Below, in pieces: positions 99 to 42,068 of a stretch of 42,068 bases of DNA. Within the stretch, counting starts at the first letter, position 1. Each line of letters begins with the position of its first letter. The DNA comes from Candidatus Hydrothermia bacterium. Its GTDB lineage: Bacteria > Hydrothermota > Hydrothermia > LBFQ01 > DSFT01. Where the stretch lies: NCBI GenBank assembly GCA_032249175.1, contig JAVVGK010000001.1, forward strand, positions 1-42,068. The letters are read 5' to 3'. The translations under genes and the position numbers were made by a program. A model generated the notes under the pieces. The model saw only the letters and a list, made by a program, of their open reading frames with translations, had not been told where the DNA came from and did no database searches.

Positions 99-123
99 CT
101 TTAAATTTTAAAGCATAAAAAGT

Positions 124-270
124 GCTTTGTCCAATAATTCTAAAATTACGATTATTTCTTATTTTCCCCACCCACCCTAAAAATAAGCCTTCCGCTTAAA
201 ACTTCGCCCCCCTTAAATTCCCCCCTAAAATAAATAATTTCCTAAAATTTTGATATTTATCAGACAAAGC
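124..270 (+). repeat. MITE-like repeat, copy 1 (internally deleted form)
   Basis: Starts GCTTTGTCCAATAATTC and ends TTATCAGACAAAGC (inverted repeat). Contains the CTTATTTT/AAAATAAG hairpin with a CCCCACCCACCCT loop and the AAGCC..GCTT hairpin. Homologous to 40771-40946. Confidence 0.8.
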
Positions 271-281
271 AAAAACTTCTT

Positions 282-445
282 GCCCTGTCCAATAATTCTG
301 AAATTAAGATTATTACTTTATCTTCTCACCTGCCCTGAGAATAAGCCTTCGCTTTATAAATACCCATATTTTACCGACCTTAAAATCAAGCCTAAATTTA
401 AACCCTACATAAAATCAATAATGCTAAATCATCCTTTAAAATTTT
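282..445 (+). repeat. MITE-like repeat, copy 2 (degenerate; right end not recognisable)
   Basis: GCCCTGTCCAATAATTCTGAAATT left end. The hairpin is retained with a changed stem (TTCTC..GAGAA), followed by AAGCCTTCGCTT. Lies in tandem with copy 1. Confidence 0.6.
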
Positions 446-861: not shown

Positions 862-938
862 TATGAGCCTTTTTTTCTTAAAAATTAAAAAAGGAGGTTG
901 AAGAAGATGGTAAATGTTCTATCACTACAAGCGATGAA
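862..938 (+). repeat. Direct repeat 1 of the precursor cassette (upstream region + RBS + leader codons 1-10)
   Basis: 77 nt identical to 1074-1150: TATGAGCCTTTTTTTCTTAAAAATTAAAAAAGGAGGTTGAAGAAGATGGTAAATGTTCTATCACTACAAGCGATGAA. Confidence 0.95.
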
Positions 939-1038
939 AGGGGAGAATATGAATAAGCCTGGTGGAGCAAGTACTATAAGTTGGAGCTTCTGTTCCACAC
1001 TGAGCTGGCATTGTGGGGGTGGAAATGAAAAAAGTTAG
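907..1038 (+). CDS. lanA: Class III lanthipeptide precursor A1 (43 aa): MVNVLSLQAMKGENMNKPGGASTISWSFCSTLSWHCGGGNEKS
   Basis: Hand-translated; too short for the ORF track. AAGGAGG lies 9 nt upstream of ATG. Leader has an LxLQ motif (VLSLQ). Core has S-T-I-S-W-S-F-C (S-x2-S-x3-C) and S-T-L-S-W-H-C (S-x2-S-x2-C). Sits immediately upstream of a LanKC gene. Confidence 0.8.
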   Translation: MVNVLSLQAMKGENMNKPGGASTISWSFCSTLSWHCGGGNEKS

Positions 1039-1045
1039 AGGAAAT

Positions 1046-1063
1046 AGGGGGTTTATCCCCCCT
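1046..1063 (+). terminator. Short GC hairpin (GGGGG-TTTAT-CCCCC) between the two precursor genes; possible attenuator or partial terminator
   Basis: G run 1047-1051 pairs with C run 1057-1062, 8 nt after the A1 stop codon. No T-tract follows. Confidence 0.3.
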
Positions 1064-1073
1064 GCTATAAAAT

Positions 1074-1150
1074 TATGAGCCTTTTTTTCTTAAAAATTAA
1101 AAAAGGAGGTTGAAGAAGATGGTAAATGTTCTATCACTACAAGCGATGAA
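1074..1150 (+). repeat. Direct repeat 2 of the precursor cassette
   Basis: Identical 77 nt to 862-938. Confidence 0.95.
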
Positions 1151-1292
1151 TGAGAATAATAGTAATGGTAATAGTGTCATAAGTGCCTCCTTTTGCTCAG
1201 CAATAAGTTTATTTGGTTGTAAAAAAGTAAAGAAAGACAATGATAGGAAATATTCTCTCAAATCCTCGCTTAGCTACGGCTGTAAATTATAA
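1119..1292 (+). CDS. lanA: Class III lanthipeptide precursor A2 (57 aa): MVNVLSLQAMNENNSNGNSVISASFCSAISLFGCKKVKKDNDRKYSLKSSLSYGCKL
   Basis: ORF track 1110..1292 (TTG). ATG 1119 is preferred because it matches A1 and sits 9 nt after AAGGAGG. Motifs: SVISASFC, SAISLFGC and SSLSYGC. The 3' end overlaps the lanKC start by 53 nt. Confidence 0.75.
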   Translation: MVNVLSLQAMNENNSNGNSVISASFCSAISLFGCKKVKKDNDRKYSLKSSLSYGCKL

Positions 1293-3723
1293 ATTTAAAT
1301 TATTAGCTAAAAAACTATTACCTTCTGATTGGAAAATGGAAGAAATGGATAATATTTGGATTGTTTGCTCTAATCCTAAAAATGATTTCCCAAAGCAAGG
1401 TTTTAAAATTCATATTAGTGCTACAATTTTAAATGCTAAGGAAATTCTAAAAACTTCAATTCCTATAATTGTTTCACACAATTCTAATTTCAAATTTTTA
1501 AAAGAATTAAAAAATTTACTATTCATGAATTCAAGAATGGCAAATAGAGGCAGTAGTGGAAAATTCATTACAATATATCCACCTAATGAAGAAGTTTTTA
1601 AAGCACTATTAGAAGAGCTTTATAAATCTTTAAAGCATTATGAAGGTCCTTATATTCTTTCCGATATGAGATATAAGGATTGTAAGGTTTTATATTATCG
1701 CTATGGTGGATTTTGGAAAATGGAAAGGATAAATGTAAAAGGTGAAAGGATTTATGTTATTGAAGCACCTGATGGAAGTTATTATGATGATATTAGACAT
1801 CCATTTTATACACTACCACCTTGGATAAAAGACCCATTTGGTAATGAAACAATAACGCCAAAAGAAGAGATTATTCTTAATGAAAGATATAAAGTAATTT
1901 CAGCAATTCAATTTTCAAATAATGGTGGAATTTATAATGCTTATGATTTATTAGAAAATAAAGAAGTAGTAATAAAGGAAGCAAGACCTTATGTAAGTAT
2001 GAGTTTAAATGGTATAGATGCTGTTTATTTATTAAAAAAGGAATATGAAATTTTAAAAATGTTAGAAAATGAAAATGTAGCACCAAAAGCTTATGAAATT
2101 TTTCAAGAATGGGAGCATTGGTTTTTAGTAGAAGAGAAATTAGAAGGGATAAATTTAAGAAATTTTGTAGCTATAAATGCCCCTATATTAAATCCATTAG
2201 CAAGCGAAAAGGATTTCCAGAATTATTTAGAGAAGTTTATTACTATTGCTGAAAACATAGCAAAACATCTTTCCATTCTTCATAAATATAATATTGTTTT
2301 TGGAGACTTTTCACCCAATAATATTATTATCAATCCTCAAACCCTTAATGTAAAATTTATAGACTTTGAGGGTGCTTATATAATAGGCAATAATAAATGG
2401 TATAATGTTTTTACACCTGGATTTTCTTCACCTCAATTGAGAAAAAATAAAAGACCTACTTTTGAAGATGACTATTATGCCTTTGGTGAAATTTTACAAG
2501 CCCTATTATTTACCAACAATACGCTATTTTTTATTGCTCCAACATTAAGAAAAAAATTCTTAAATAAACTTATAAAAGATTATCATTTTCCTAAAATTTT
2601 CAAAGAAGTTATTTTAAATTTAATAAAATATGAGCCAAAATCCCGCATAAAACCAATTGAAGCTGTAAATATATTAAAAACCAATAAAAGAATTGTCAAT
2701 TATAAAGAAAATGTTAAAATAATGGATTTAAGAACTTATATTGAAAAGACAAAAAAGGGAATTATAAAGATATTTCAAAAGAAAAAGGAAGGGAATTTAA
2801 ATTTCGCATTTGGGGATTTGGGAGTAATCTATGTTTTAAATCTTGTAGGCGAAAACTTTAAAGAATATTTAAAATCTCAAAGTTTAGAAAATTATCCACC
2901 TGGTTTATATGTAGGTTTAAGTGGAATAGCTTGGGCATTTTTAGATTTAAATTTAAATGATTTAGCAATAGAAGCATTAAATAAAGCAAAGAGAAGTCCA
3001 TTATTATATGAAAGTTTAGATATGTTTTATGGTATTTCTGGATATGGACTGACAAATTTAAAGTTTTATAAAAGGTTAAAAGACAAAACATTTTTAAATA
3101 ATGCTATTGAAGTTTATGAATTTATAAAAAATAGAGAATTGAAATTTCAGGAGATTGGATATGGTCATGGAGCAAGTGGAGTTGCATTATTTTTAATAAA
3201 ATTATATGAATTTTTAAGAAATGAAGATATAAAGAATTTAGCTATTTACTTATTAAAACAAGATTTAGAAAATGGAGTAAATACAAATGGATATTTAACA
3301 TTTCCACAAGAAGAGGATAGTTCCACAGTTTTGCCTTATGTAGAATATGGAAGTGCTGGTATAATAGGTGTTTTAGTAAGGTTTTATGAGATTTTAAAAG
3401 AAGAATGGATTTTAGAATATATAAAAAATATCTTACCTGATTTAGAGAGGACATTTACGATATTTCCATCACAAATAGATGGACTTGCAGGCTTGGGTGA
3501 AAGTTTATTAGATTTAGAATTGAAATTAAATTATAAAACAAAAATTTATAAAATTTTAGAAGGTTTAAGAATTTACGCTATTTTTAAAGATGGTTGTATA
3601 TTTTATCCAAGGAGTAATCTTGATAGTATTGGAATTCATTGGGCAGATGGCTCATCTGGTATATTAGACTTTCTACATCGCTTATATAATAAAAGAAACG
3701 AGAGAACACTATGGGATTTTTAA
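1240..3723 (+). CDS. lanKC: Class III lanthipeptide synthetase (LanKC: lyase - Ser/Thr kinase - zinc-ligand-less cyclase)
   Basis: N-terminal lyase motifs: GFKIHISA and GKFITIYP. Kinase motifs: VVIKEAR, FGDFSPNNIII and KFIDFEGA. C-terminal LanC-like Gly-rich repeats: GLSGIAWAF, GISGYGL, GYGHGASGVALF, YGSAGIIGVL, DGLAGLGESL and WADGSSGIL. No Cys/Cys/His zinc triad is present. Confidence 0.9.
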   Translation: MIGNILSNPRLATAVNYKFKLLAKKLLPSDWKMEEMDNIWIVCSNPKNDFPKQGFKIHISATILNAKEILKTSIPIIVSHNSNFKFLKELKNLLFMNSRMANRGSSGKFITIYPPNEEVFKALLEELYKSLKHYEGPYILSDMRYKDCKVLYYRYGGFWKMERINVKGERIYVIEAPDGSYYDDIRHPFYTLPPWIKDPFGNETITPKEEIILNERYKVISAIQFSNNGGIYNAYDLLENKEVVIKEARPYVSMSLNGIDAVYLLKKEYEILKMLENENVAPKAYEIFQEWEHWFLVEEKLEGINLRNFVAINAPILNPLASEKDFQNYLEKFITIAENIAKHLSILHKYNIVFGDFSPNNIIINPQTLNVKFIDFEGAYIIGNNKWYNVFTPGFSSPQLRKNKRPTFEDDYYAFGEILQALLFTNNTLFFIAPTLRKKFLNKLIKDYHFPKIFKEVILNLIKYEPKSRIKPIEAVNILKTNKRIVNYKENVKIMDLRTYIEKTKKGIIKIFQKKKEGNLNFAFGDLGVIYVLNLVGENFKEYLKSQSLENYPPGLYVGLSGIAWAFLDLNLNDLAIEALNKAKRSPLLYESLDMFYGISGYGLTNLKFYKRLKDKTFLNNAIEVYEFIKNRELKFQEIGYGHGASGVALFLIKLYEFLRNEDIKNLAIYLLKQDLENGVNTNGYLTFPQEEDSSTVLPYVEYGSAGIIGVLVRFYEILKEEWILEYIKNILPDLERTFTIFPSQIDGLAGLGESLLDLELKLNYKTKIYKILEGLRIYAIFKDGCIFYPRSNLDSIGIHWADGSSGILDFLHRLYNKRNERTLWDF

Positions 3724-5249
3724 AAGAAGTCATTTTTAAATTTAAATTCTTCATCCTTATAAAAATTCTTATTATATGCTTAATTTTTCCAATCCTTTCA
3801 TTCTTTGAGCCACTTTTGAATAAATACCTATTTGATTATGGTATTATGGCAGGTGATTTTAAGAAATTTGTAATTTTACTTTCTCTAATTACTATTTTTT
3901 CATTTATCTCTCTTTTGCTTGAATACATAATTCAAATTTACGATGGATTTTTAAAAAATAAAATTAGGGAATATGTAATAGAGGCATTTGTAGAAAAGTT
4001 TTATGAACTGCCATATTCAGAAGTAATAAAGAAAGATAAGGGATATTATATAAGTAGAATTTATGAAGAGCCAACATCTGCTATAATAAATAGCTTGGAT
4101 TTATTTATAAACACATTAAGCTATACTCTTAATACAACTGCCCGATTTATTGCTATGCTTATACTTTCACCTATCGCAGCCATTACCGCACTTCCACTTA
4201 TTATCATTTCATATTTTTTAAGCAAGAAATTTCAGCCTTCTATTCATGAGCTTACTCAAAAACAATTAGAATATGAAGCCTTATTAAGAAATAAAATAGG
4301 AAACTTCATATCATCTTATATTTTTGTAAATACAAACAAAACTCATAATGTAGTTAAAAATCAATTATCAGCAATTCTAAAAAACTTTTTAAGTACTATT
4401 TATAATCTCATAAAAAAGCAATCTAATTTTTCTTATGTTTCTCAAATTGCTTCTGTAATTGTTCAAATAGCATTTATTATAATAAACGCTTATCTTTTAT
4501 TTATAAAGAGAATTACATTTGGAGATTTTGTAGGATTTCTTAATGCCTTTTATCCATTTTATTGGAACATAAGAGTTTTATTTGAATCAATTCCACAAGT
4601 CTTTTCAAGCATTTCGCAACTTCAAAGAATAGAAGCATTTAAAAATCAAAAATTTGAGCCAAAACACATTATATTTTCAGATATTATAGAATTAAAAGAT
4701 ATAGAATTTTCTTATGATAATTATAAAGTTTTTCAGAATTTCTCATTAAGAATAAAAAGAGGTGAAAAGGTTTTAATTTTTGGAGCAAATGGAACGGGTA
4801 AAACGACATTACTTTATATTATATCAGGATTTTTAGAGCCTCAAAAAGGCACTATAAGAACGATAAAAGACATTTCCATTTCCACAATAAACCTTATAGA
4901 TATGCCTATCAAAGAGTATTTAAATATAATTGTTTTTCAAAGGGAAAAGCTTTTGAATATGTTAAATGAGCTAAATTTAGATTTAAATAAGAAACCATCC
5001 GAATTATCAACAGGACAATTGAAAAAACTTTCAGTAGCATTAGCCTTATCAAAACCTGCTGATGTTTATTTATTAGATGAGCCATTAGAAAGTGTAGATA
5101 TAGAGGACAAAAGAAAACTTATAGAAATGATATTAAATGAAACAAAACAAAAAACCCTTCTTTTAACAACCCATGACTTAATTATAAATGAATATATAAA
5201 ATTCTTTGACAAAATTATAGAACTGAAAAAGGAGGAGGTAAAGATATGA
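3711..5249 (+). CDS. ABC exporter, fused permease-ATPase half-transporter (no C39 peptidase domain)
   Basis: N-terminal TM helices. Walker A GANGTGKTT, signature LSTGQLKKL, Walker B VYLLDEP, H-loop TTHD. 13-nt overlap with lanKC. Confidence 0.85.
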   Translation: MGFLKEVIFKFKFFILIKILIICLIFPILSFFEPLLNKYLFDYGIMAGDFKKFVILLSLITIFSFISLLLEYIIQIYDGFLKNKIREYVIEAFVEKFYELPYSEVIKKDKGYYISRIYEEPTSAIINSLDLFINTLSYTLNTTARFIAMLILSPIAAITALPLIIISYFLSKKFQPSIHELTQKQLEYEALLRNKIGNFISSYIFVNTNKTHNVVKNQLSAILKNFLSTIYNLIKKQSNFSYVSQIASVIVQIAFIIINAYLLFIKRITFGDFVGFLNAFYPFYWNIRVLFESIPQVFSSISQLQRIEAFKNQKFEPKHIIFSDIIELKDIEFSYDNYKVFQNFSLRIKRGEKVLIFGANGTGKTTLLYIISGFLEPQKGTIRTIKDISISTINLIDMPIKEYLNIIVFQREKLLNMLNELNLDLNKKPSELSTGQLKKLSVALALSKPADVYLLDEPLESVDIEDKRKLIEMILNETKQKTLLLTTHDLIINEYIKFFDKIIELKKEEVKI

Positions 5250-7420
5250 TAAACTTTATTATTTCCCTTGTTATAAGTGGGAAGGTTTTAGATGAAACAA
5301 CATCTGAGCCTATGGGATATACTGCTATAATGCTATATAAAGATACAATTCTCATAACAGGAACATATACAGATGAAAAGGGAAATTTCATAATAAAGGA
5401 TATAAAGCCTGGTGAATACATTTTATATGCTCACTTTATAGGATATGAAAAGCAAAAGATAAATTTAACAATAAATAAAGATACAAGTATAACAATAACA
5501 TTAAAACCATCAGGAATAGAATTAAAAGAGCAAGAAGTAAAGGCAACTGCTCCAAGAGTAAGATATGAAGTAGATAGAAAAATTGTATCACCAAGTAATG
5601 ATATAATAGCAAGGAGTGGAAGTGCTGTTGATGTTTTAAGAAATGTACCAGGTGTATCAGTAAGTCCTGATGGGAATGTAAAAATAAAAAATAGTGATAG
5701 ATATATTGTTTTTGTAGATGGAAAACCTACTAATTTAAGTTTAAAAGATATACCAGCAAGTCAAATAGAATATATTGAAGTAATAACAAATCCGTCAGCA
5801 GAATTTGATGCAGAAGGAAATGCCATTATAAATGTCATATTAAAAAAACAAAAAGATTATGGATATAGTGTTAATGTAAATGTAAATATGGATAGTTATG
5901 GGACAATTAGTCCTAATATATTTTATGGTTTAAAAATGGGCAATTTATCTACCTATATAAAATTAAAAGGTGGAAAAACAATAAGTAAATCATATTATGA
6001 AGGGCAAAAGATATTTCAAAAAGATACTATATTTGAAGATGCTAATACTAAATTTTCCTCTCTTTCACTTATTCCTACTTTTGGCATTAGTTATAATAAT
6101 TTTAATTTTGAAACAGGTGGAAGAATTTCCAATAGAGAAGGAGAAAATCAATATAACCAAACAATTTCAGGTATAAATTATACTAGAAATTACAATTTTA
6201 ATGAGAATTTTCAATCCTTTTATTTAACATCTGATTACACATATAAGAACATTAAAATTTTAGGATATTATTCAAAAAATCACAAATTATATGATGAAAT
6301 AAAGGATTCATCATCTAATGGTGGTGTAAAAATTATTACTGAAAAACCAAGTGAGAAATTTTATGGTCAAATAGATATAAAGAAGGATAAATTTTCATTT
6401 GGATATAAGGGCAGTATAAGTAATTACTTTATTAGTTTTGACTTTAATACAATTTCAAATCCAAAATTTCCATATCTTCCAAGTTATTTTATATCCACAA
6501 AAAGAATTGTTAATGCTGGTTATTTGGAATTTTCCTCTAATTATAAGAATATTCAATATAAATTGGGTTTAAGAGTTGAAAATACACAAATAAGAGCAGA
6601 TACTATAAAAAGAGAATATACAAATATCTTTCCTTCCTTAAATTTCTCATATAACTTTTCAAATCATTCAATATATTTAGGATATAGAAATGGAATATGG
6701 AGACCTTCTGATTATCAATTATTGCCATTATATCACTATCAATCATTTGATGAGATGGAAAAAGGGAATCCAACACTTTTGCCTGAATATTCAAATAGTG
6801 CGTCAATTGGTTTAAATTTAAACTTTGAAAAAATCTCAATAACTCCTGAAATTTACTTTACAAGAACAATACAAATACTTGATGTTAATGAATATCCTTA
6901 TGATACATTTAATGTAAGTGTAAAGGAATATATAAATGTAAATGAAGGTAGAAATTTCGGCTTTTCATTAAATATAAATTATACTCCCATTCAGATATTA
7001 ACATTAAGTTTAAATTCAAGTGTTTATAATTATTCCTATGAAAACATTTCACTTACAACTTATGAAATCAATAGCTCAATTCAAGCTTTTCTCTTATTCT
7101 TTGCTCTTCAAGGGAATTTATATTATACTCCTCGTTATGATTATTATTGGGGAAGGATAGGAGAGCAAATTTATTCTCAATTAGCTCTTATGACCCAAAT
7201 AAAAAATTACACATTCTCCTTAGTGTTTAACGACCCATTCAAAATTTATAAATTCAATATTACCGTAAATAAAGATAATTACTATGCTTATAAATTTAAT
7301 AGAATTCCATATCCTTATATTGCTCTTCAAGTAAGTTATAATTTCAATAAAAAGTTTAAGAAAGTCAAAAAAGAAGAAAATTATGATGTAGAAAATACAG
7401 GTGAGAGGTTTTTAAGGTAA
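5246..7420 (+). CDS. Outer-membrane beta-barrel protein, TonB-dependent-receptor-like (CarboxypepD_reg-like domain + plug + barrel; resembles the OMP_b-brl_3 type)
   Basis: N-terminal GKVLDETTSEPMGYTAIML...TDEKGNFIIKDIKPGEYILYAHFIGYEK. Plug-like SAVDVLRNVPGVSVSPDGNVKIKN...FVDGKP. Y/F/N-rich alternating barrel sequence. Terminal ...QVSYNF followed by a K/E-rich tail. ATGA overlap with the ABC gene and an AAGGAGGAGGT RBS. Confidence 0.75.
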   Translation: MINFIISLVISGKVLDETTSEPMGYTAIMLYKDTILITGTYTDEKGNFIIKDIKPGEYILYAHFIGYEKQKINLTINKDTSITITLKPSGIELKEQEVKATAPRVRYEVDRKIVSPSNDIIARSGSAVDVLRNVPGVSVSPDGNVKIKNSDRYIVFVDGKPTNLSLKDIPASQIEYIEVITNPSAEFDAEGNAIINVILKKQKDYGYSVNVNVNMDSYGTISPNIFYGLKMGNLSTYIKLKGGKTISKSYYEGQKIFQKDTIFEDANTKFSSLSLIPTFGISYNNFNFETGGRISNREGENQYNQTISGINYTRNYNFNENFQSFYLTSDYTYKNIKILGYYSKNHKLYDEIKDSSSNGGVKIITEKPSEKFYGQIDIKKDKFSFGYKGSISNYFISFDFNTISNPKFPYLPSYFISTKRIVNAGYLEFSSNYKNIQYKLGLRVENTQIRADTIKREYTNIFPSLNFSYNFSNHSIYLGYRNGIWRPSDYQLLPLYHYQSFDEMEKGNPTLLPEYSNSASIGLNLNFEKISITPEIYFTRTIQILDVNEYPYDTFNVSVKEYINVNEGRNFGFSLNINYTPIQILTLSLNSSVYNYSYENISLTTYEINSSIQAFLLFFALQGNLYYTPRYDYYWGRIGEQIYSQLALMTQIKNYTFSLVFNDPFKIYKFNITVNKDNYYAYKFNRIPYPYIALQVSYNFNKKFKKVKKEENYDVENTGERFLR

Positions 7421-7455
7421 AAGCCCTAATTTAAGGGTGGGTTGGGAACAAAGCC
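7421..7455 (-). repeat. Remnant of the MITE-like repeat core (AAGGGTGGGTTGGGAA)
   Basis: AAGCCCTAATTTAAGGGTGGGTTGGGAACAAAGCC resembles the G-rich strand of the repeat core (compare 21961-22000). Confidence 0.4.
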
Positions 7456-7476
7456 TAAACTTTAAAATTTATTACT

Positions 7477-8175
7477 TTGAAAATTTTACATTTATACTAT
7501 GACCTAATGAATACTTATGGTGATAGGGGAAATGTAATCATTCTTTTTAAAATAGCAGAGCATTTAAAATTAAAACCAAAAATCATAAAATATAGAATTG
7601 GTGATAAAATAACTGAAAACGTTGATTTTATATTCATAGGAGGTGGTGAAGATTGGCAACAGGAAATTATTTATAATGATTTTAAAAATTTGAAAAACTA
7701 TATTTTTGAGCATGTTGAGGAAAATAAGCCTTTGCTTGCTATATGTGGAGGATATCAATTGTTGGGTAAATTTTATAAAACAAATGAAGGGAAAATTATT
7801 GAAGGTCTTGGAATATTTGACATTTGGACAATAGCAGGGAAAAAACGATTAGTAGGAAATTTAATTGTTGATAGTCCTTTTGGAAAAATTGTTGGTTTTG
7901 AGAATCATTCAGGTAGAACTTATATAAATGGCTCTCCACTTGGTAATGTCATAATGGGTAGTGGTAATAATGGAGAAGATAAAACGGAAGGTTATATTTA
8001 TAAAAAAGCTATTGGAACTTATATGCACGGACCTTTCCTGTCAAAAAATCCAGAAATTGTAAAATTCATATTTAGCTCAATTTTAAATGATGAAATAAAA
8101 TTTAATTTTGATTTAGAGCAAAAAGCTAAAATGAAAGCTTTAAGTTTTAAAAGATTAAATGAAGGAAGAATTTAA
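7477..8175 (+). CDS. CobB/CobQ-like glutamine amidotransferase (GatD-like)
   Basis: MKILHLYYDLMNTYGDRGN, LAICGGYQLLG (nucleophile Cys), GFENHSGRT and YMHGP motifs. TTG start. Confidence 0.7.
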   Translation: MKILHLYYDLMNTYGDRGNVIILFKIAEHLKLKPKIIKYRIGDKITENVDFIFIGGGEDWQQEIIYNDFKNLKNYIFEHVEENKPLLAICGGYQLLGKFYKTNEGKIIEGLGIFDIWTIAGKKRLVGNLIVDSPFGKIVGFENHSGRTYINGSPLGNVIMGSGNNGEDKTEGYIYKKAIGTYMHGPFLSKNPEIVKFIFSSILNDEIKFNFDLEQKAKMKALSFKRLNEGRI

Positions 8176-9137
8176 CTTTTTATAGGTGTCTTTTCAATAA
8201 TTTCTTTTAAAATTATTTCAGAAGTTATATTATCAGCTTCTGCTAAAAAGTTTAAAATAATTCTATGTCTTAAAACATCAAAGAAAATGTACTTTACATC
8301 CTCTGTTGTAGCAAAATCTTTTCCTTCAATAAATGCTTTTGCTTTTGCGCCAATAATCAAAAATTGGCTTGCTCTTGGTCCTGCTCCGAATTGAACATAT
8401 TTTTTAACAATTTCTAAATCAGTTTCAGAAGGTCTTGTTTTTCTTACAAGATTTATAGCATATTTAACAACATGATCACCTACGGGAATTTCTCTAACTT
8501 TCATTTGAATTGTTAAGATATCATCTTTATTTAAAACTTTTTGAACTTCATAATTTTGCTCAATAGTTGTTCTTTTAACTATTTCTATTTCATTTTCAAA
8601 TGTTGGATAATTTAAAATAATTTCCATCATAAATCTATCTATCTGTGCTTCTGCAAGTGGATAAGTTCCTTCTTGCTCTATTGGATTTTGTGTTGCTAAA
8701 ACAAAAAATGGCTCTTCAAGCTCATAAGTTTTACCAAGAACTGTAACTCTTCTTTCTTGCATAGCTTCAAGTAATGCTGATTGGGTTTTAGGTGGTGTTC
8801 TATTTATTTCATCTGCTAAAATAACATTAGCAAATATAGGTCCTTTTACAAATTGAAAAAATCTACCATTAGGACCTTCTTGAATAATTTCAGTTCCAAG
8901 AATATCCATAGGCATTAAATCAGGTGTAAATTGAATTCTACTAAATTTTAAATCAAGTGCTTGTGATAATGTTTTAACCATAAGTGTTTTAGCAAGTCCT
9001 GGAACACCAACAAGTAAAACATGACCTTTTGAAAACATACAAATTAAAATTTTATTTATTACATCTTCATAATTTACTATAATTTTTGAAATTTCTGATT
9101 TTAGCTTATTTATTTTTTCAATCATAATTAAATTCAA
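8172..9137 (-). CDS. MoxR-family AAA+ ATPase
   Basis: GVPGLAKT Walker A, LADEINR Walker B, ATQNPIEQEGTYPLAEAQIDRF. Confidence 0.9.
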   Translation of the reverse strand: MNLIMIEKINKLKSEISKIIVNYEDVINKILICMFSKGHVLLVGVPGLAKTLMVKTLSQALDLKFSRIQFTPDLMPMDILGTEIIQEGPNGRFFQFVKGPIFANVILADEINRTPPKTQSALLEAMQERRVTVLGKTYELEEPFFVLATQNPIEQEGTYPLAEAQIDRFMMEIILNYPTFENEIEIVKRTTIEQNYEVQKVLNKDDILTIQMKVREIPVGDHVVKYAINLVRKTRPSETDLEIVKKYVQFGAGPRASQFLIIGAKAKAFIEGKDFATTEDVKYIFFDVLRHRIILNFLAEADNITSEIILKEIIEKTPIKS

Positions 9138-15821: not shown

Positions 15822-15856
15822 AACAAAAAGTTTAAAATTTTAAAGGTTGTTTATAT

Positions 15857-15929
15857 GCTTTGTCCAATAATTCTAAAATTACGATTATTTCTTATTTTTC
15901 CCGCACACCCTGAAAATAAGGCTTTGCCT
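15857..15929 (+). repeat. MITE-like repeat, copy 3 (half element: one end plus both hairpins)
   Basis: GCTTTGTCCAATAATTCTAAAATTACGATTATTTCTTATTTTTCCCGCACACCCTGAAAATAAGGCTTTGCC. Confidence 0.8.
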
Positions 15930-15939
15930 ACCATAGCTT

Positions 15940-21834: not shown

Positions 21835-22035
21835 GCTTTGTCCAATAAATAGTGTTAAGTGATTAACTATCAATAACTTATGAAATCTTTAATGAAATTA
21901 TAGATTTTATAGGGGGATTATTAGGGGGCGGAAGCCCCCTGCCGAAAAATAGGGAACTTTAAAGCCGAAGGCTTATTTTTAGGGTGGGTGGGAAAAATAA
22001 GAAATAGTCGTAATTTTAGAATTATTGGACAATCC
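21835..22035 (-). repeat. MITE-like repeat, copy 5 (full length, with an extra AGGGGGC-GGAA-GCCCCCT hairpin)
   Basis: GCTTTGTCCAATAAATAGTG ... AGAATTATTGGACAATCC. In tandem with copy 4. Confidence 0.85.
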
Positions 22036-22070
22036 AACTCAATTTTATCCTTAACTTTAAAATTATCAAT

Positions 22071-28660: not shown

Positions 28661-30045
28661 TATTGAGGATTTATCAGTTTATTTAAATCAAAAATTTTTT
28701 CAGCTTCTTCCTTCGTTAAATAACCCATTTCTACTACAATTTCCTTTACACTTCGTTTTTCTTTTAAGGCTCTTTTGACAACTTCTGCTGATTTGTCATA
28801 TCCTATAATTGGATTTAAAATTGTTGCGATAATTGGATTTCTATATAATAATTCTTCAACATGCTCTTTATTTACAATAAAATCTTTTATACATTTATCC
28901 GCTAAAACATAACAAGCATTTGTAAGAATTTCAATAGAATTTAAGATATTGTAAATCATAATTGGCATCATTACATTTAATTCAAATTCTCCAAGGCTAT
29001 TACTAATTGTAATTGATAAATCATTTGCTATTACTTGAACACCAACCATTCTAACTGCTTCTGGAATAACGGGATTAACTTTTCCTGGCATAATTGAAGA
29101 GCCAGGTTGTAATTCAGGAAGAATAATTTCAGAAAAACCTGCTATTGGACCACTATTCATAAGTCTTAAATCATTAGAAATTTTAATTAAATTTGTTGCT
29201 AAAATTTTTAATGCGGATGAAAGCTCTAATATACTATCTCTGCTTGATTGTGCTTCAAAATGATTATTTGCTTCAATAAAGTCTAAATTTAATAATTGTG
29301 ATAATTTTTCTGCTACTTTTTTACCAAAATTAGGATGTGTATTTATTCCTGTTCCAACAGCAGTTCCACCAATAGCAAGTTCTCTTAATCTTGTAAATGT
29401 TGATTCAATTCTATGTTTAGCATATAAAATTTGTGTTGCCCAACCACTTAGTTCTTGCTCAAAGCTTATTGGCATTGCATCCATTAAGTGAGTTCTACCT
29501 GTTTTAATAATACCTTTAAGTTCTAATGATTTTTTAACAATTGTTTGATATAAATGCTCAATTGAAGGAATTAATTTATATTTTGTTTCATAATAGGCAG
29601 AAACATTCATAGCAGTTGGTATTACATCATTTGATGATTGTCCCATATTTACATGGTCATTTGGATGAATTGGTTCTTTCGTTATTCTTTTTCCTGTTAA
29701 AATTTCATTTGCTCTTGTTGATATTACTTCATTTATATTCATATTGGTTGATGTTGCTGAGCCTGTTTGGAATATATCTAATGGAAATTGGTCATCAAAT
29801 TTTCCTTCTATAATTTCATTTATGGCTTGCTTTATAGCATTATAATAGTTTTGTGGTATTTTTCCAAGCTCATAATTTACTTCTAAACATGCTAATTTTA
29901 CATAAGCAAGAGCTTTTATAAAGCTTTTAGGAAACTTTAAATTACTTATTTGAAAATTCTCTAATGCTCTTTGAGTTTGCGCACCCCAATAAGCATTTTG
30001 AGGAACTCTAACCTCACCGAGTGTATCCTTTTCAATCCTTTCCAT
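28660..30045 (-). CDS. fumC: Class II fumarate hydratase
   Basis: YWGAQTQRALENF, GSSIMPGKVNP signature, length 461 aa. Confidence 0.93.
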   Translation of the reverse strand: MERIEKDTLGEVRVPQNAYWGAQTQRALENFQISNLKFPKSFIKALAYVKLACLEVNYELGKIPQNYYNAIKQAINEIIEGKFDDQFPLDIFQTGSATSTNMNINEVISTRANEILTGKRITKEPIHPNDHVNMGQSSNDVIPTAMNVSAYYETKYKLIPSIEHLYQTIVKKSLELKGIIKTGRTHLMDAMPISFEQELSGWATQILYAKHRIESTFTRLRELAIGGTAVGTGINTHPNFGKKVAEKLSQLLNLDFIEANNHFEAQSSRDSILELSSALKILATNLIKISNDLRLMNSGPIAGFSEIILPELQPGSSIMPGKVNPVIPEAVRMVGVQVIANDLSITISNSLGEFELNVMMPIMIYNILNSIEILTNACYVLADKCIKDFIVNKEHVEELLYRNPIIATILNPIIGYDKSAEVVKRALKEKRSVKEIVVEMGYLTKEEAEKIFDLNKLINPQ

Positions 30046-30298
30046 AATCTTCTCCTAAAATTTTTTTAAGTTCTTCTTGATTTTTTGACAAATATAAGGC
30101 ATATCCTTTAAGCAGATTTATATCAATTTTTCTTGGAATTTCCTTTATTGTTTTTCTTGAATACTTAATATAATCCGGACCAATAGCACTAATTTCCCTT
30201 ACTTCAATTTCAATTGGTTTTTTAATCAAAAGCAGTTTATTTATAATTTTCCTTATAAGAATGGAAGATAAAATATCCTTAAAAGGGTCAAAATTCAT
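30032..30298 (-). CDS. Hypothetical protein (start moved to ATG 30298)
   Basis: The ORF track begins at TTG 30319, but those codons spell the CTTTAAAATTTT promoter motif (30303-30314). ATG follows 4 nt after the motif. Confidence 0.5.
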   Translation of the reverse strand: MNFDPFKDILSSILIRKIINKLLLIKKPIEIEVREISAIGPDYIKYSRKTIKEIPRKIDINLLKGYALYLSKNQEELKKILGEDYGKD

Positions 30299-30350
30299 AT
30301 TTAAAATTTTAAAGGGCAAAGAAAAAATTTACCTTAAAATTTTATAAATT

Positions 30351-36148: not shown

Positions 36149-36221
36149 TGGTGGCGGGCGGACTCGAACCGCCGACACGGGGCTTATGAGACCCCCGCTC
36201 TACCAGCTGAGCTACACCACC
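36149..36221 (-). tRNA. tRNA with CAT anticodon, elongator type (Met, or Ile2 if lysidinylated); no encoded CCA
   Basis: Hand-folded cloverleaf: GGTGGTG-TA-GCTC-AGCTGGTA-GAGC-G-GGGGT-CTCATAA-GCCCC-GTGTC-GGCGG-TTCGAGT-CCGCC-CGCCACC-A. G1-C72 is paired. Confidence 0.9.
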
Positions 36222-36223
36222 GA

Positions 36224-36297
36224 TAGCGGGGGAGGGATTTGAACCCTCGACCTCCGGGTTATGAGCCCGGCGAGCTACCTGGCTGCTCCACCCCGCG
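36224..36297 (-). tRNA. Initiator tRNA-fMet (CAT); no encoded CCA
   Basis: CGCGGGG-TG-GAGC-AGCCAGGTA-GCTC-G-CCGGG-CTCATAA-CCCGG-AGGTC-GAGGG-TTCAAAT-CCCTC-CCCCGCT-A. C1/U72 are mismatched and three G:C pairs close the anticodon loop. Near-identical in architecture to E. coli tRNA-fMet. Confidence 0.93.
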
Positions 36298-37384: not shown

Positions 37385-38143
37385 TTGAAAATGCTTTATT
37401 CTCCTCATGGAGTAATATATTATGGTGAATATAAACTTCCCGATGAAATTGTAATTGAGAAGTCTCAATTTATGAATAGCCATCCTAACTATAAACAAAC
37501 TATCAAAGGTTCAATAAATGTTTCAAAGATAAATAATAATTACGAGGTATATAAATTAGAATTTACGAAACTTGTTGAATTAAATGGAAATAAAAAATTT
37601 TATCCATCTTATTTTTTAGTTTATGATGGAAAAATCATTTTGGAAAGCGATTATATAACTGATAGGAATTTAGATTTTAAGCTTATTTTTGAAGAAGATG
37701 TTTTAGTACCTTTTGATATTAGAGACAATTTAGAAGGAGAATTTAATTATAATGAAAATATAAAGTTAAAATATAAATGTAGTCCCCCTGATGAGCCTTC
37801 GCTTCCAAGATGCGGATTTAAAGTTTTATTTAAAAATATAAGGGATAGTATAATAGGAACTACAAATGGTATAATTAGAATTGGAACATATGATTTTGAT
37901 AACGATAAAATAGATGAAATTATTGTTCAAAGCGAAGGGGTATCTGATTATGGAATTTCAATCTATAAAATTTCATCTTCAAAATTAATAGAAATAGCAA
38001 GTTGGTCAGAAAAGGCTGCTTATAATTGCTCATATTATCCTATTGCTTTTAAGGTTAAAAATACTTTTTATGTTCTTTATAATGACTTATCAGATATTGT
38101 AAAAAATTATAATAAGTGTAGATACTTTCCAATTTCTAAATAA
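37385..38143 (+). CDS. Hypothetical protein (252 aa; start TTG 37385 or ATG 37391)
   Basis: ORF track. AAGGTGA lies upstream. Confidence 0.5.
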   Translation: MKMLYSPHGVIYYGEYKLPDEIVIEKSQFMNSHPNYKQTIKGSINVSKINNNYEVYKLEFTKLVELNGNKKFYPSYFLVYDGKIILESDYITDRNLDFKLIFEEDVLVPFDIRDNLEGEFNYNENIKLKYKCSPPDEPSLPRCGFKVLFKNIRDSIIGTTNGIIRIGTYDFDNDKIDEIIVQSEGVSDYGISIYKISSSKLIEIASWSEKAAYNCSYYPIAFKVKNTFYVLYNDLSDIVKNYNKCRYFPISK

Positions 38144-38927
38144 AAAGACTTAAAAAATCATCGGGAATAACATTTCTTATTACATTTAAAAGTTGTTTTG
38201 AAAATCTTCTAAAACTATTTGAAATAGCATAAGCTCTTGAAATTGATAAGTAGTAATTATAAAACCATTTATCTTTCAGTTTTTCAATGATAATTTTTAA
38301 ACTTTTTATATTGTTATATAAAATTTCAGGTGTTGCTTTTAATATGGCAAATTCCATAAATTGTGGAAATTTTGGCATTAAAAAAACTCTTGAATAACCA
38401 AATAATTCATAAAATTTATGATAATTTCCAAAATGCTCATCTTTATAAGCCATTACGATAATTGATGAATCATAAGGCTCATTTACAACTTCATAATTTT
38501 CTGATAAAAAATTTATAATTTCATAATCATTGGCATCATCAGGAATGTAAATTTTTATGCTATCAGGTGGGTTTATGAACTTCTTATAATCAATTGGATA
38601 GTCAATATAAATAACAAGTGTGCTATCTATGAACATTCTTAATAAAATATCCTTTTGAAATTTGTGATGAACGATAATTCTATCAACATAATTTAGAATT
38701 TCATATGCCTTTTCAAAACTATTATGCATTATAGCAATTTTACCAATTTTTTCATCTTTATATTCTTTAAAAATTTCAATATCTTTTTCATCCTCAATGT
38801 GAGCAATTAATATAAAAAAATCAAAATTATCCAAAAGGACATTTTCTTTTTGTAAATGAAATTTTAAATTTGAATTATAGTTTTTAAATTTTGGATTTTC
38901 AATTAAGTTGAGCTTTATTTTCAACAT
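38136..38927 (-). CDS. Hypothetical protein (263 aa)
   Basis: ORF track. Overlaps the ftsH 3' end by 29 nt. Confidence 0.5.
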   Translation of the reverse strand: MLKIKLNLIENPKFKNYNSNLKFHLQKENVLLDNFDFFILIAHIEDEKDIEIFKEYKDEKIGKIAIMHNSFEKAYEILNYVDRIIVHHKFQKDILLRMFIDSTLVIYIDYPIDYKKFINPPDSIKIYIPDDANDYEIINFLSENYEVVNEPYDSSIIVMAYKDEHFGNYHKFYELFGYSRVFLMPKFPQFMEFAILKATPEILYNNIKSLKIIIEKLKDKWFYNYYLSISRAYAISNSFRRFSKQLLNVIRNVIPDDFLSLFI

Positions 38928-41078: not shown

Positions 41079-41495
41079 AATTTCAACACTATCAAAGTAG
41101 AATTAGAGCTTGAAGTTCAATATCGTGATTTAGACCCACTTGGTCATGTTAATAATGCTGTTTATTTAAGTTATTTTGAGCAAGCAAGAGTTAAAATGTT
41201 TGAAAATTTATATAAAAATAATCCCAATTACAATTTTGTAATAGCACATGCAGAAATTGATTATTTGAAACCTTTATATCTTGAAAAAATAAAAATTGTT
41301 TGTTGGGTTAGCAATATAGGAAAAACAAGTTTTAAAATTGATTATGAAATATATAATTCAAAAAATGAAATCTGTGCTAAAGGCTCAACAATCCAAGTTA
41401 TGTTTGACCCCATTAAAAAGCAAAAAATTGAAATTGATGAAAAATTCAAAAATTACTTAACTTCATTTTTTTATAACCCTCATAAATCCTCCTAA
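41079..41495 (+). CDS. 4HBT/YbgC-type hotdog-fold acyl-CoA thioesterase; start codon unresolved (possible pseudogene or non-canonical start)
   Basis: The frame is open from 41079 and encodes ..ELEVQYRDLDPLGHVNNAVYLSYFEQARVKMFE.., the conserved catalytic N-terminal region. The first ATG/GTG/TTG in frame is 41196, downstream of that region. Confidence 0.6.
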   Translation, partial: NFNTIKVELELEVQYRDLDPLGHVNNAVYLSYFEQARVKMFENLYKNNPNYNFVIAHAEIDYLKPLYLEKIKIVCWVSNIGKTSFKIDYEIYNSKNEICAKGSTIQVMFDPIKKQKIEIDEKFKNYLTSFFYNPHKSS

Positions 41496-42018
41496 TAATT
41501 GTTATATAAATTAAAATTGAAAAAACAACAAGGAAGAAAAAGATGAATTTTATAAAAATTGTCATCAGTGCTATAAAAAAAATTCTTTCAGCTCTTTCCA
41601 TAGGACCTGCCTTTATAAGAACACCCAAAGATTCACCTCTCGCTCTTATATAACTAATTAAAAATGAGCCAAAAGCACAAATTATTAAAAGTATTTGAAT
41701 TAAAAAATTTTCTTTAAAAGCTACAATAAGTGATAAAAAAATTAAAGCTTCTGATATTCTATCAAAATTTGAATCTAAAAATGCTCCTAATTTTGAAGTT
41801 TGATTAGTCATTCTTGCTAATTCACCATCCATAGCATCAAATAAGTTTATAAGAATTAAACTAATTGCACCCAATAAAAAATTTTTGTTTAAATAAAAAT
41901 AAAATGGAACTAAATTTAAAATAAGCGTTATCGTTGTTAATAAATTAGGCTTAACATTTAATTTAACAAAAAACTTTATAATAGGCAATAAAAAAATAAC
42001 TCTTAACTTCTCTTTCAA
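41446..42018 (-). CDS. CDP-alcohol phosphatidyltransferase family protein (start moved to TTG 42018)
   Basis: DAMDGELARMTNQTSKLGAFLDSNFDRISE matches D-G-x2-A-R-x8-G-x3-D-x3-D. The ORF-track start (42057) lies inside the repeat terminal inverted repeat and upstream of the promoter motif (42025-42035). Confidence 0.8.
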   Translation of the reverse strand: MKEKLRVIFLLPIIKFFVKLNVKPNLLTTITLILNLVPFYFYLNKNFLLGAISLILINLFDAMDGELARMTNQTSKLGAFLDSNFDRISEALIFLSLIVAFKENFLIQILLIICAFGSFLISYIRARGESLGVLIKAGPMERAERIFFIALMTIFIKFIFFFLVVFSILIYITIIRRIYEGYKKMKLSNF

Positions 42019-42046
42019 GATTTGAAATTTTAAAGTGCTTAATAAA

Positions 42047-42068
42047 GCTTTGTCCAATAATTCTGAAA
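42047..42068 (+). repeat. MITE-like repeat, copy 8 (cut by the window end)
   Basis: GCTTTGTCCAATAATTCTGAAA is identical in type to the starts of copies 1-3. Confidence 0.7.

Follow-up and report, generated by a model that had tools for sequence, protein, structure and literature searches.

Two predicted class III lanthipeptide precursor genes share an identical 77-nt leader cassette in an uncultured, A+T-rich bacterium

The operon and its two precursor genes

The 42,068-nt stretch of bacterial DNA analysed here (contig JAVVGK010000001.1; hereafter the window) carries near its left end an operon in the order lanA1, hairpin, lanA2, lanKC, ABC exporter gene and a gene for an outer-membrane barrel that resembles TonB-dependent receptors. 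Its first two genes, lanA1 (907–1038, + strand, 43 aa) and lanA2 (1119–1292, + strand, 57 aa), are predicted to encode class III lanthipeptide precursors, and genes of these lengths are called at both places in public assemblies. Each begins inside one copy of a perfect direct repeat of exactly 77 nt, at 862–938 and 1074–1150 (both + strand). A repeat search, an exact and near-exact search and base-by-base extension gave these limits, confirming an earlier note on this DNA that had described 77 identical nucleotides covering an A/T-rich region, the sequence AAGGAGG and codons 1–10. The block occurs only twice in the window, and its 48-nt core has exactly two matches in 42 kb with up to 3 mismatches allowed, against 0 expected (100 shuffles). 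No ungapped extension is possible to the left, and the first mismatch to the right is at 939/1151. If a 2-nt indel is allowed, weaker homology continues leftward for ~13 nt more (CTATGGAATTA[TA]TGAGCC versus CTATAAAATTA--TGAGCC), as expected for a fresh tract inside an old duplication.

Each copy of this cassette consists of 45 nt of upstream sequence (an A/T-rich region with a T-rich stretch, the ribosome-binding site and a 9-nt spacer) and codons 1–10 of the gene that follows. The ribosome-binding site, AAGGAGG, lies at 891–897 and 1103–1109, with an ATG 9 nt on, at 907 and 1119, and both reading frames then open with MVNVLSLQAM. The list of open reading frames (ORFs) started both genes at TTG codons instead, giving 898–1038 (46 aa) and 1110–1292 (60 aa); the earlier note was right that neither ATG-initiated form stood in the list, although lanA1 was not absent from it, and a 60-aa threshold would leave only lanA2, which explains the note's remark. 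We rejected the TTG starts at 898 and 1110, which directly abut the ribosome-binding site. ATG 907 and ATG 1119 appear to be the credible starts, because they lie at a suitable distance from the ribosome-binding site and because an in-frame TAA stands two codons before the homologous ATG in the relative L011, introduced below.

The tandem arrangement is real and no assembly artefact, because eight independent contigs (L001–L006, L009 and L010; JGI and ENA) hold both cassette copies with 0–1 differences over 441–1400. L007 (JGI) and L008 (Logan) start inside the second copy and match the window exactly over the overlap, and ten contigs from independent samples and pipelines encode a LanKC identical to the window's. 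Three public contigs (L007, L008 and L032) end inside the second cassette, at window-equivalent positions ~1096–1121, a typical assembly break at a repeat, so that short-read bins of the organism may often miss lanA1.

The translations given in the earlier note proved exact: A1 reads MVNVLSLQAM-KGENMNKPGGASTISWSFCSTLSWHCGGGNEKS (907–1038) and A2 reads MVNVLSLQAM-NENNSNGNSVISASFCSAISLFGCKKVKKDNDRKYSLKSSLSYGCKL (1119–1292). In A1 the putative leader helix MVNVLSLQAM is followed by a spacer (KGENMNKPGGA), two predicted rings, STISWSFC (SxxSxxxC) and STLSWHC (SxxSxxC), and a tail (GGGNEKS). A2 has the same helix, the spacer NENNSNGN, rings SVISASFC and SAISLFGC, a basic linker (KKVKKDNDRKY) and, after it, a third motif, S-LK-SSLSYGC, before a final KL. 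The class III core motif SxxSxx(x)C is thus present twice in A1 and three times in A2; Sx2Sx3C has been used to define class III cores (PMC7268733). The combined leader-plus-ring pattern is found in lanA1 and lanA2 only, among the ORFs of the 42 kb, and both genes lie on the strand of lanKC, lanA2 overlapping it and lanA1 202 nt upstream of its start.

Both peptides match three NCBIfam class III precursor models (NF038159, NF038154 and NF033212), the SapB/AmfS model included. A1 scores 29.5 and 21.9 bits where the cutoffs are 30 and 22, and A2, over residues 1–34 only, scores 20.8 and 19.1 bits against the same two cutoffs; all four values thus stay just short, with E-values from 5e-7 to 1.5e-3. 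We read both ORFs as class III lanthipeptide precursors whose cores are predicted to be dehydrated and cyclised; the earlier note's view of them as tandem precursor-peptide genes is supported. The models reach only the first two rings of A2-type peptides.

The identical part of the two peptides would be the end that the enzyme recognizes. Residues 4–8 of A1 and A2 are VLSLQ, and when 11 related peptides are aligned, M1, L5, L7 and Q8 never vary and the 8–20 residues after the helix differ in length and sequence. LabKC cannot do without the ILELQ at the N-terminus of LabA2, whereas the remaining leader serves only as a spacer and tolerates changes of sequence (PMC8341899); in ThurKC the bound part of the leader, Met(-22) to Lys(-14), forms a helix, and a LELQL motif is required (PMC10604976). 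By this comparison the 77-nt block comprises the translation signals and the predicted LanKC-recognition helix, as the earlier note had proposed, and divergence starts at the presumably sequence-tolerant spacer.

The enzyme itself is encoded by lanKC (1240–3723, + strand, 827 aa), a class III lanthionine synthetase gene by Pfam and NCBIfam, with PF25816 (RamC_N lyase) at residues 23–204, PF00069 (kinase) at 228–476 and PF05147 (LanC-like cyclase) at 552–825. It scores 646.2 bits against the class III equivalog NF038151 (cutoff 575) and 463 bits, below the cutoff of 650, against the class IV (LanL) model NF038150. Its best solved relative is ThurKC (8sao, E = 1e-72). At the cyclase site the window protein has YGSAG (in PYVEYGSAG) and IDG (in SQIDGLAG) opposite GGSIG and LFDG of ThurKC, with no Cys or His there, so that the Cys-Cys-His zinc ligands are lacking; the metal-free cyclase residues of ThurKC are Ser726, Phe770 and Asp771 (PMC10604976). 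lanKC starts inside lanA2, in the +1 frame, with a 53-nt overlap that takes in the last 17 lanA2 codons. ATG 1240 is its first in-frame start and the only one upstream of a conserved N-terminal helix, YKFKLLAKKLLPSDWK (aligned by NCBIfam from residue 18); because that helix precedes the next ATG, lanKC must start at 1240. Among four substitutions that strain variants carry in the overlap, two are silent in the A2 frame and none in the lanKC frame. In a sister population (lineage B, below; L037, L039, L043 and L050 examined) a C-to-T change has produced another in-frame ATG, at the counterpart of position 1276, and in L039 the lanKC ATG at 1240 is mutated to ATA; the lanKC start may thus differ between strains.

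Two precursor types in distant relatives

The host is an uncultured bacterium with an outer membrane and very A+T-rich DNA (26% GC), and its nearest genome-level relative is L011, a metagenome-assembled genome (MAG) of candidate division WOR-3 (Caldifarciminota) with 31% GC and a LanKC 51% identical to the window's. The L011 locus has the order A1′, hairpin, A2′, lanKC, 512-aa ABC gene and barrel gene (CarboxypepD_reg, Plug, OMP_b-brl_3). An A1-type and A2-type pair also stands upstream of lanKC in L051/L052 (LanKC 52% identical, 30% GC) and in L053 (49% identical, 53% GC), giving A1-type orthologues in L011, L051 and L053. L054 (LanKC 41% identical) has a single A2-type gene, located between the ABC and barrel genes and not upstream of lanKC. 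These more distant precursors were found via LanKC loci; word-index protein searches with A1 and A2 returned only 2 and 3 near-identical clusters, and a metagenome scan with a degenerate leader DNA pattern gave ten stretches, four of them chance matches in unrelated 43–52% GC DNA, and no divergent-lineage contig with both genes.

Past the shared leader, each window peptide resembles its distant counterpart more than its neighbour. Over residues 11 to the end, A1 aligns to A1′ of L011 with a score of 56 and A2 to A2′ with 84, against 26 for A1 and A2 within the window and 16 for A2 and A1′. Each copy being nearer its L011 counterpart than its neighbour, the A1 and A2 types would predate the split of these organisms. 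On this evidence the duplication appears old, and the recent duplication that the earlier note had offered as one of two alternatives is excluded: A1 and A2 form separate orthologous groups present in relatives with ~50% LanKC identity and 30%–53% GC.

The cores are likewise neither fully diverged nor diversifying, contrary to the earlier note. A codon-aware alignment of the A1 and A2 rings has 9/15 residues identical, including all ring-forming Ser and Cys, at a nucleotide identity of 58%, and five of the nine conserved residues use different codons (for example Ser as AGC versus TCC). Across the 11 peptides S22, S25, C29, S30 and C36 are invariant, and S27, F28 and S33 nearly so. A1 and A2 would thus be old paralogues built on one ring scaffold, each type conserved across relatives. 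An ungapped, naive nucleotide alignment past base 938 gave 51% identity and was uninformative, the comparison having to be made codon by codon.

The A2 type has a conserved design of two adjacent rings, a Lys/Arg-rich linker and a third motif, SS(L/A)SxxC, kept across genomes of 26%–53% GC (window, 1119–1292; L011, 2410–2604; L051, 1193–1381; L053, 437–622; L054, 5374–5553). All four relatives retain both the basic linker and the third motif. In L011 and L051 lanA2 and lanKC overlap by only 19–22 nt, with the motif outside the overlap, and in L053 they do not overlap; because the linker and SSLSxxC are kept where the overlap is small or absent, the A2 tail is apparently no by-product of it. 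A1-type and A2-type genes co-occur in four lineages, which is compatible with a two-component lantibiotic, its two peptides acting only together, but does not in itself show synergy.

Leader identity does not extend to the relatives. The paralogous leaders are MSSVLALQTL and MFLVLSLQAL in L011 and MRNILGLQSM and MLWVLSLQAM in another relative, and the upstream DNA of the paralogues differs too in L011, L051 and L053, where the systems are intact. The earlier note had suggested aligning homologous loci for recurrent leader identity and core divergence; the identity does not recur, the leaders of L011, L051 and L053 being different, whereas the A1/A2 pair does recur with its types conserved.

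Origin of the shared 77 nt

Close relatives of the window reveal how freely the cassette can change. In lineage B, the sister population (contigs L030–L032, L037, L039, L043, L045 and L050), lanKC, the ABC gene and the barrel gene are 91–94% identical to the window's, and the cassette differs from the window's at 5/~62 comparable sites, about the background rate (7–8% divergence). The differences between lineages A and B fall at synonymous leader sites (CTA to TTA, GCG to GCT, CTA to CTC) and upstream (TCTT to TTGT), so that sites in the block are free to change and under no unusual constraint. The two copies in the window differ at 0/77 positions, against 42% nucleotide divergence in the ring region; the chance of 0/77 is P ~0.004 at 7% divergence and ~5e-19 at the divergence of the ring region. 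Within the tract, then, paralogues are more alike than orthologues (0/77 versus 5/~62), whereas outside it the A1–A1′ and A2–A2′ scores lie far above that of A1–A2. The states are also lineage-specific, with TCTT, CTA and GCG in A and TTGT, TTA and GCT in B. L030 has TTGT both in its A1 cassette and in a remnant of the second cassette, and both window copies have TCTT; the sharing of the leader-site states (TTA/GCT versus CTA/GCG) is seen across contigs only, no lineage-B contig having both genes intact.

A recent, short gene-conversion tract, for which A2 was the donor and A1 the recipient, is the best explanation of the 77-nt identity; of the two alternatives in the earlier note, gene conversion of the leader module is the one that fits the data. 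A2 would be the donor because the shared VLSLQAM is A2-type (VLSLQAM in L053, VLSLQAL in L011), unlike the A1-type leaders VLALQTL and ILGLQSM, and because A1 is back to A1-type sequence at K11. This direction, and any adaptive value that the conversion may have, we infer.

The locus varies among close relatives. Lineage A contigs L033–L036 and L038 are without lanA1 and its cassette and keep a remnant of the post-A1 hairpin. In lineage B, L037, L039, L043 and L045 have lanA2 directly behind upstream sequence of A1 type, the outcome to be expected of a crossover between cassettes or of an assembler skipping a loop; L030/L031 keep A1 and are without A2, lanKC and the greater part of the ABC gene. 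In lineage C (L047–L049, LanKC 86% identical) lanKC, the ABC gene and the barrel gene remain, and upstream of lanKC there is no precursor gene. These variants, lacking A1, or A2 plus lanKC, or both precursors, show that the region recombines readily; the repeat would make the locus deletion-prone. Where only A1 is kept, one ring serine of its peptide is gone (STLNWCC), and the outer-membrane barrel gene is always retained in close relatives despite the presence–absence polymorphism of precursors and synthetase.

We are fairly confident that the two genes stand at the head of a class III lanthipeptide operon and are old paralogues that recently came to share 77 nt by conversion from A2 onto lanA1. 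The same perfect identity with its sharp edge would be expected if one precursor gene had been duplicated recently and had then changed very fast after codon 10, and near-identical tandem precursors are known from other LanKC loci, such as L024. This explanation is nevertheless very unlikely, since past codon 10 each copy is much nearer a counterpart at ~50% LanKC identity than its neighbour, conserved core residues use different codons, AGC against TCC for Ser among them, and the basic linker and third motif specific to A2 are conserved in L011, L051, L053 and L054. It is unlikely, though somewhat less so, that no conversion took place and that strong purifying selection on a translation or regulatory RNA element and the recognition helix holds all 77 nt. 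The block does contain the ribosome-binding site, the start codon and what should be the LanKC-binding helix, and identical ribosome-binding sites could equalise the output of both peptides; yet sister lineages differ at 5/~62 sites in the block, synonymous and upstream bases included, against 7–8% divergence, and the paralogous leaders and upstream regions of L011, L051 and L053 are plainly different in intact systems.

A decaying cluster, in which the peptide genes are relics that no longer yield products, is an improbable alternative too, standing only a little behind pure constraint. It would account for the loss of A1 in L033–L036 and L038, of A2, lanKC and most of the ABC gene in L030/L031 and of both precursors in L047, and for the ATA in place of the lanKC ATG in L039. 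In the window strain, by contrast, all five genes are intact and tightly coupled, both precursor genes are kept in eight independent contigs with 0–1 differences (two more match exactly over their overlap), the leader variation is synonymous, and the overlap substitutions are silent in the A2 frame in 2/4 cases and in the lanKC frame in none. That an assembler created the repeat or the tandem arrangement is hardly credible: L007, L008 and L032 do end inside the cassette, as happens at repeats, but the same arrangement came from different pipelines and samples (JGI and ENA, MEGAHIT k141), and breakage at a repeat shows that the repeat is present in the reads.

Several points weigh against our favoured explanation, the conversion of old paralogues in a functional operon. 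The argument from concerted evolution uses few sites, two synonymous ones in the leader and two upstream; the lineage-B contigs with A2 only could be products of cassette crossover or of assembler loop-skipping, which partly confounds it; and selection for equal translation and enzyme recognition could maintain the identity once it had arisen. The precursor models score slightly below their curated cutoffs, and that either peptide is made we infer from the genes. The loss of precursors or synthetase in close relatives (L030, L047) suggests a system that strains can dispense with and that may be in decay. The assignment of the host to WOR-3 comes from one 51%-identical LanKC match and shared gene order, not from marker genes.

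Exporter, barrel and wider setting

A G+C-rich stem-loop, UAGGGGG-UUUAUC-CCCCCUG (1045–1064, + strand, fold −12 kcal/mol), followed by a TATAAAAT box, separates lanA1 from lanA2, and a hairpin of other sequence occupies the same place in L011, L030, L033, L051 and L053. Its probable role is to act as a partial terminator, to stabilise the RNA or to mark where a second promoter begins. A terminator scan flagged it on the minus strand only, and a sigma-70 scan found no + strand promoter in 400–1500; TATA-like boxes just 5′ of each cassette were seen by eye only.

Downstream of lanKC, and overlapping it by 13 nt, is the ABC exporter gene (3711–5249, + strand, 512 aa), whose product has membrane and ATPase domains and no peptidase domain. 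It overlaps by 4 nt the gene for an outer-membrane beta-barrel like a TonB-dependent receptor (5246–7420, + strand, 724 aa), with CarboxypepD_reg, a weak Plug and OMP_b-brl_3. The ABC gene is conserved downstream of lanKC in L011, L047, L051 and L054, and the barrel gene follows it in the same four (in L011 at 6667–8913), that is, in every member of the LanKC clade examined. LanKC loci of Acidobacteriota, Gemmatimonadota and other soil MAGs have a different ORF layout after lanKC, as judged from listed ORFs with families unassigned. In the literature we found no description of a TonB-receptor-like barrel gene in lanthipeptide clusters.

The remainder of the window is ordinary chromosome, with genes for Rho, FtsH, NADH dehydrogenase, signal peptidase, a heptosyltransferase and a TolC-like protein. 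No leader protease of M16, S9 or M1 type was found in 38/42 ORFs of at least 90 aa (all except 30032–30319, 38136–38927, 41196–41495 and 41446–42057), the only matches being signal peptidase S26 and FtsH; a cluster that encodes no leader protease is usual for class III (PMC7268733, PMC10604976). A 122-aa ORF at 449–817 was rejected as a cluster member, as it has no Pfam or NCBIfam match and is unlike the ORF upstream of the L011 cluster; lineage B has a NUDIX gene in its place. At gathering thresholds Rfam had no match in 1–1300 and only two tRNAs in the whole window, adjacent genes at 36149–36297 (− strand). A dispersed intergenic repeat of ~85 nt has four copies in the window, at 123–201 (+), 281–359 (+), ~15856–15935 (+) and ~21955–22036 (−), with the core TGCTTTGTCCAATAATTCTAAAATTACGATTATT...CCCACCCACCCTAAAAATAAGCCTTCGGCTT, a small AAGCC-TTCG-GCTT hairpin at its end and no Rfam match; L047 has a shortened copy, at 2846–2900, upstream of its orphan lanKC.

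On the likeliest reading, lanA1 and lanA2 would be translated from identical ribosome-binding sites, and their common N-terminal helix (V-L-S-L-Q) would dock on the single LanKC, which is predicted to phosphorylate core serines, eliminate the phosphates and close lanthionine or labionin rings onto the cysteines of SxxSxx(x)C. The products may be moved by the ABC protein and probably also by the outer-membrane barrel, the leader presumably being cut off by a protease encoded elsewhere. Conversion would have given lanA1 a ribosome-binding site and a recognition helix of A2 type, in a tract that ends where the tolerant spacer starts.

Much of this plan is familiar. In labA1-labA2-labKC of Actinomadura namibiensis and in SapB/AmfS (RamS/RamC), as here, one LanKC serves tandem small precursors (PMC8341899), and these systems share with the window an N-terminal hydrophobic xLxLQ helix with a spacer, SxxSxx(x)C cores and ABC export genes (PMC8341899). 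Unlike them, the window comes from a low-GC host with an outer membrane, in an uncultured phylum, and couples a barrel gene to the exporter; the basic linker and third ring motif of A2, the lanA2/lanKC overlap and the base-perfect 5′ block are further differences. The andalusicin cluster of Bacillus thuringiensis (thurA1-A7, ThurKC) likewise pairs several precursors of common leader with one class III enzyme and encodes no protease (PMC10604976), and the ThurKC structure has the first ~9 leader residues, with the LELQL motif, bound as a helix (PMC10604976). The ThurA copies are nearly identical throughout, as recent copies of whole genes, whereas in the window identity is limited to the first 77 nt, with ancient divergence beyond them; the window also has no methyltransferase. 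In class II, the prochlorosins with ProcM and the two-peptide roseocin show the same functional separation of leader and core, with one enzyme for differing cores (PMC13500794); there the enzyme is a LanM and leader similarity is read as conservation, in contrast to the homogenised old paralogues and conserved core types described here. Gene conversion within polyketide synthase (PKS) and non-ribosomal peptide synthetase (NRPS) clusters also copies and pastes between homologous segments and leaves sharp-edged tracts of identity (PMC13500794). The review of that process covers megasynthase modules and not precursors of peptides that ribosomes make and that are modified after translation (RiPPs) (PMC13500794), and the window tract is only 77 nt long, spanning a translation signal and a putative recognition helix.

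The LanKC/class III family and the pairing of one common leader with differing cores are both known already, and the findings on lanA1 and lanA2 do not overturn current understanding. New here are the lineage of the host, the outer-membrane barrel coupled to the exporter, the A2 type with its three conserved motifs and what looks like a clear case of gene conversion among RiPP precursors, which has so far been discussed mainly for PKS/NRPS modules; our literature searches found nothing specific on gene conversion of lanthipeptide leaders, and searches for WOR-3 lanthipeptides found none described from that phylum. A more speculative reading, which we think doubtful as a whole, joins two ideas: a distinct class III subfamily of outer-membrane bacteria with trafficking through the barrel, and a cassette that acts as a natural recombination handle. 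If the first were true, a clade defined by lanKC, ABC and barrel genes with an A2-type peptide would use the barrel to export its product or to re-import it as a signal or metal carrier; if the second were true, cores would be gained, lost and reassorted via the cassette among co-existing strains.

With this locus a phylum that has no cultured producers gains a complete and compact operon of the class III lanthipeptide kind. Its homogenised tract, stopping at the border between helix and tolerant spacer, would be a natural illustration of the leader model. One leader with two cores, together with the strain variants, offers a ready test set for the substrate tolerance of LanKC, and two candidates for heterologous study are the conserved A2 peptide with its three predicted rings and the barrel coupled to the exporter.

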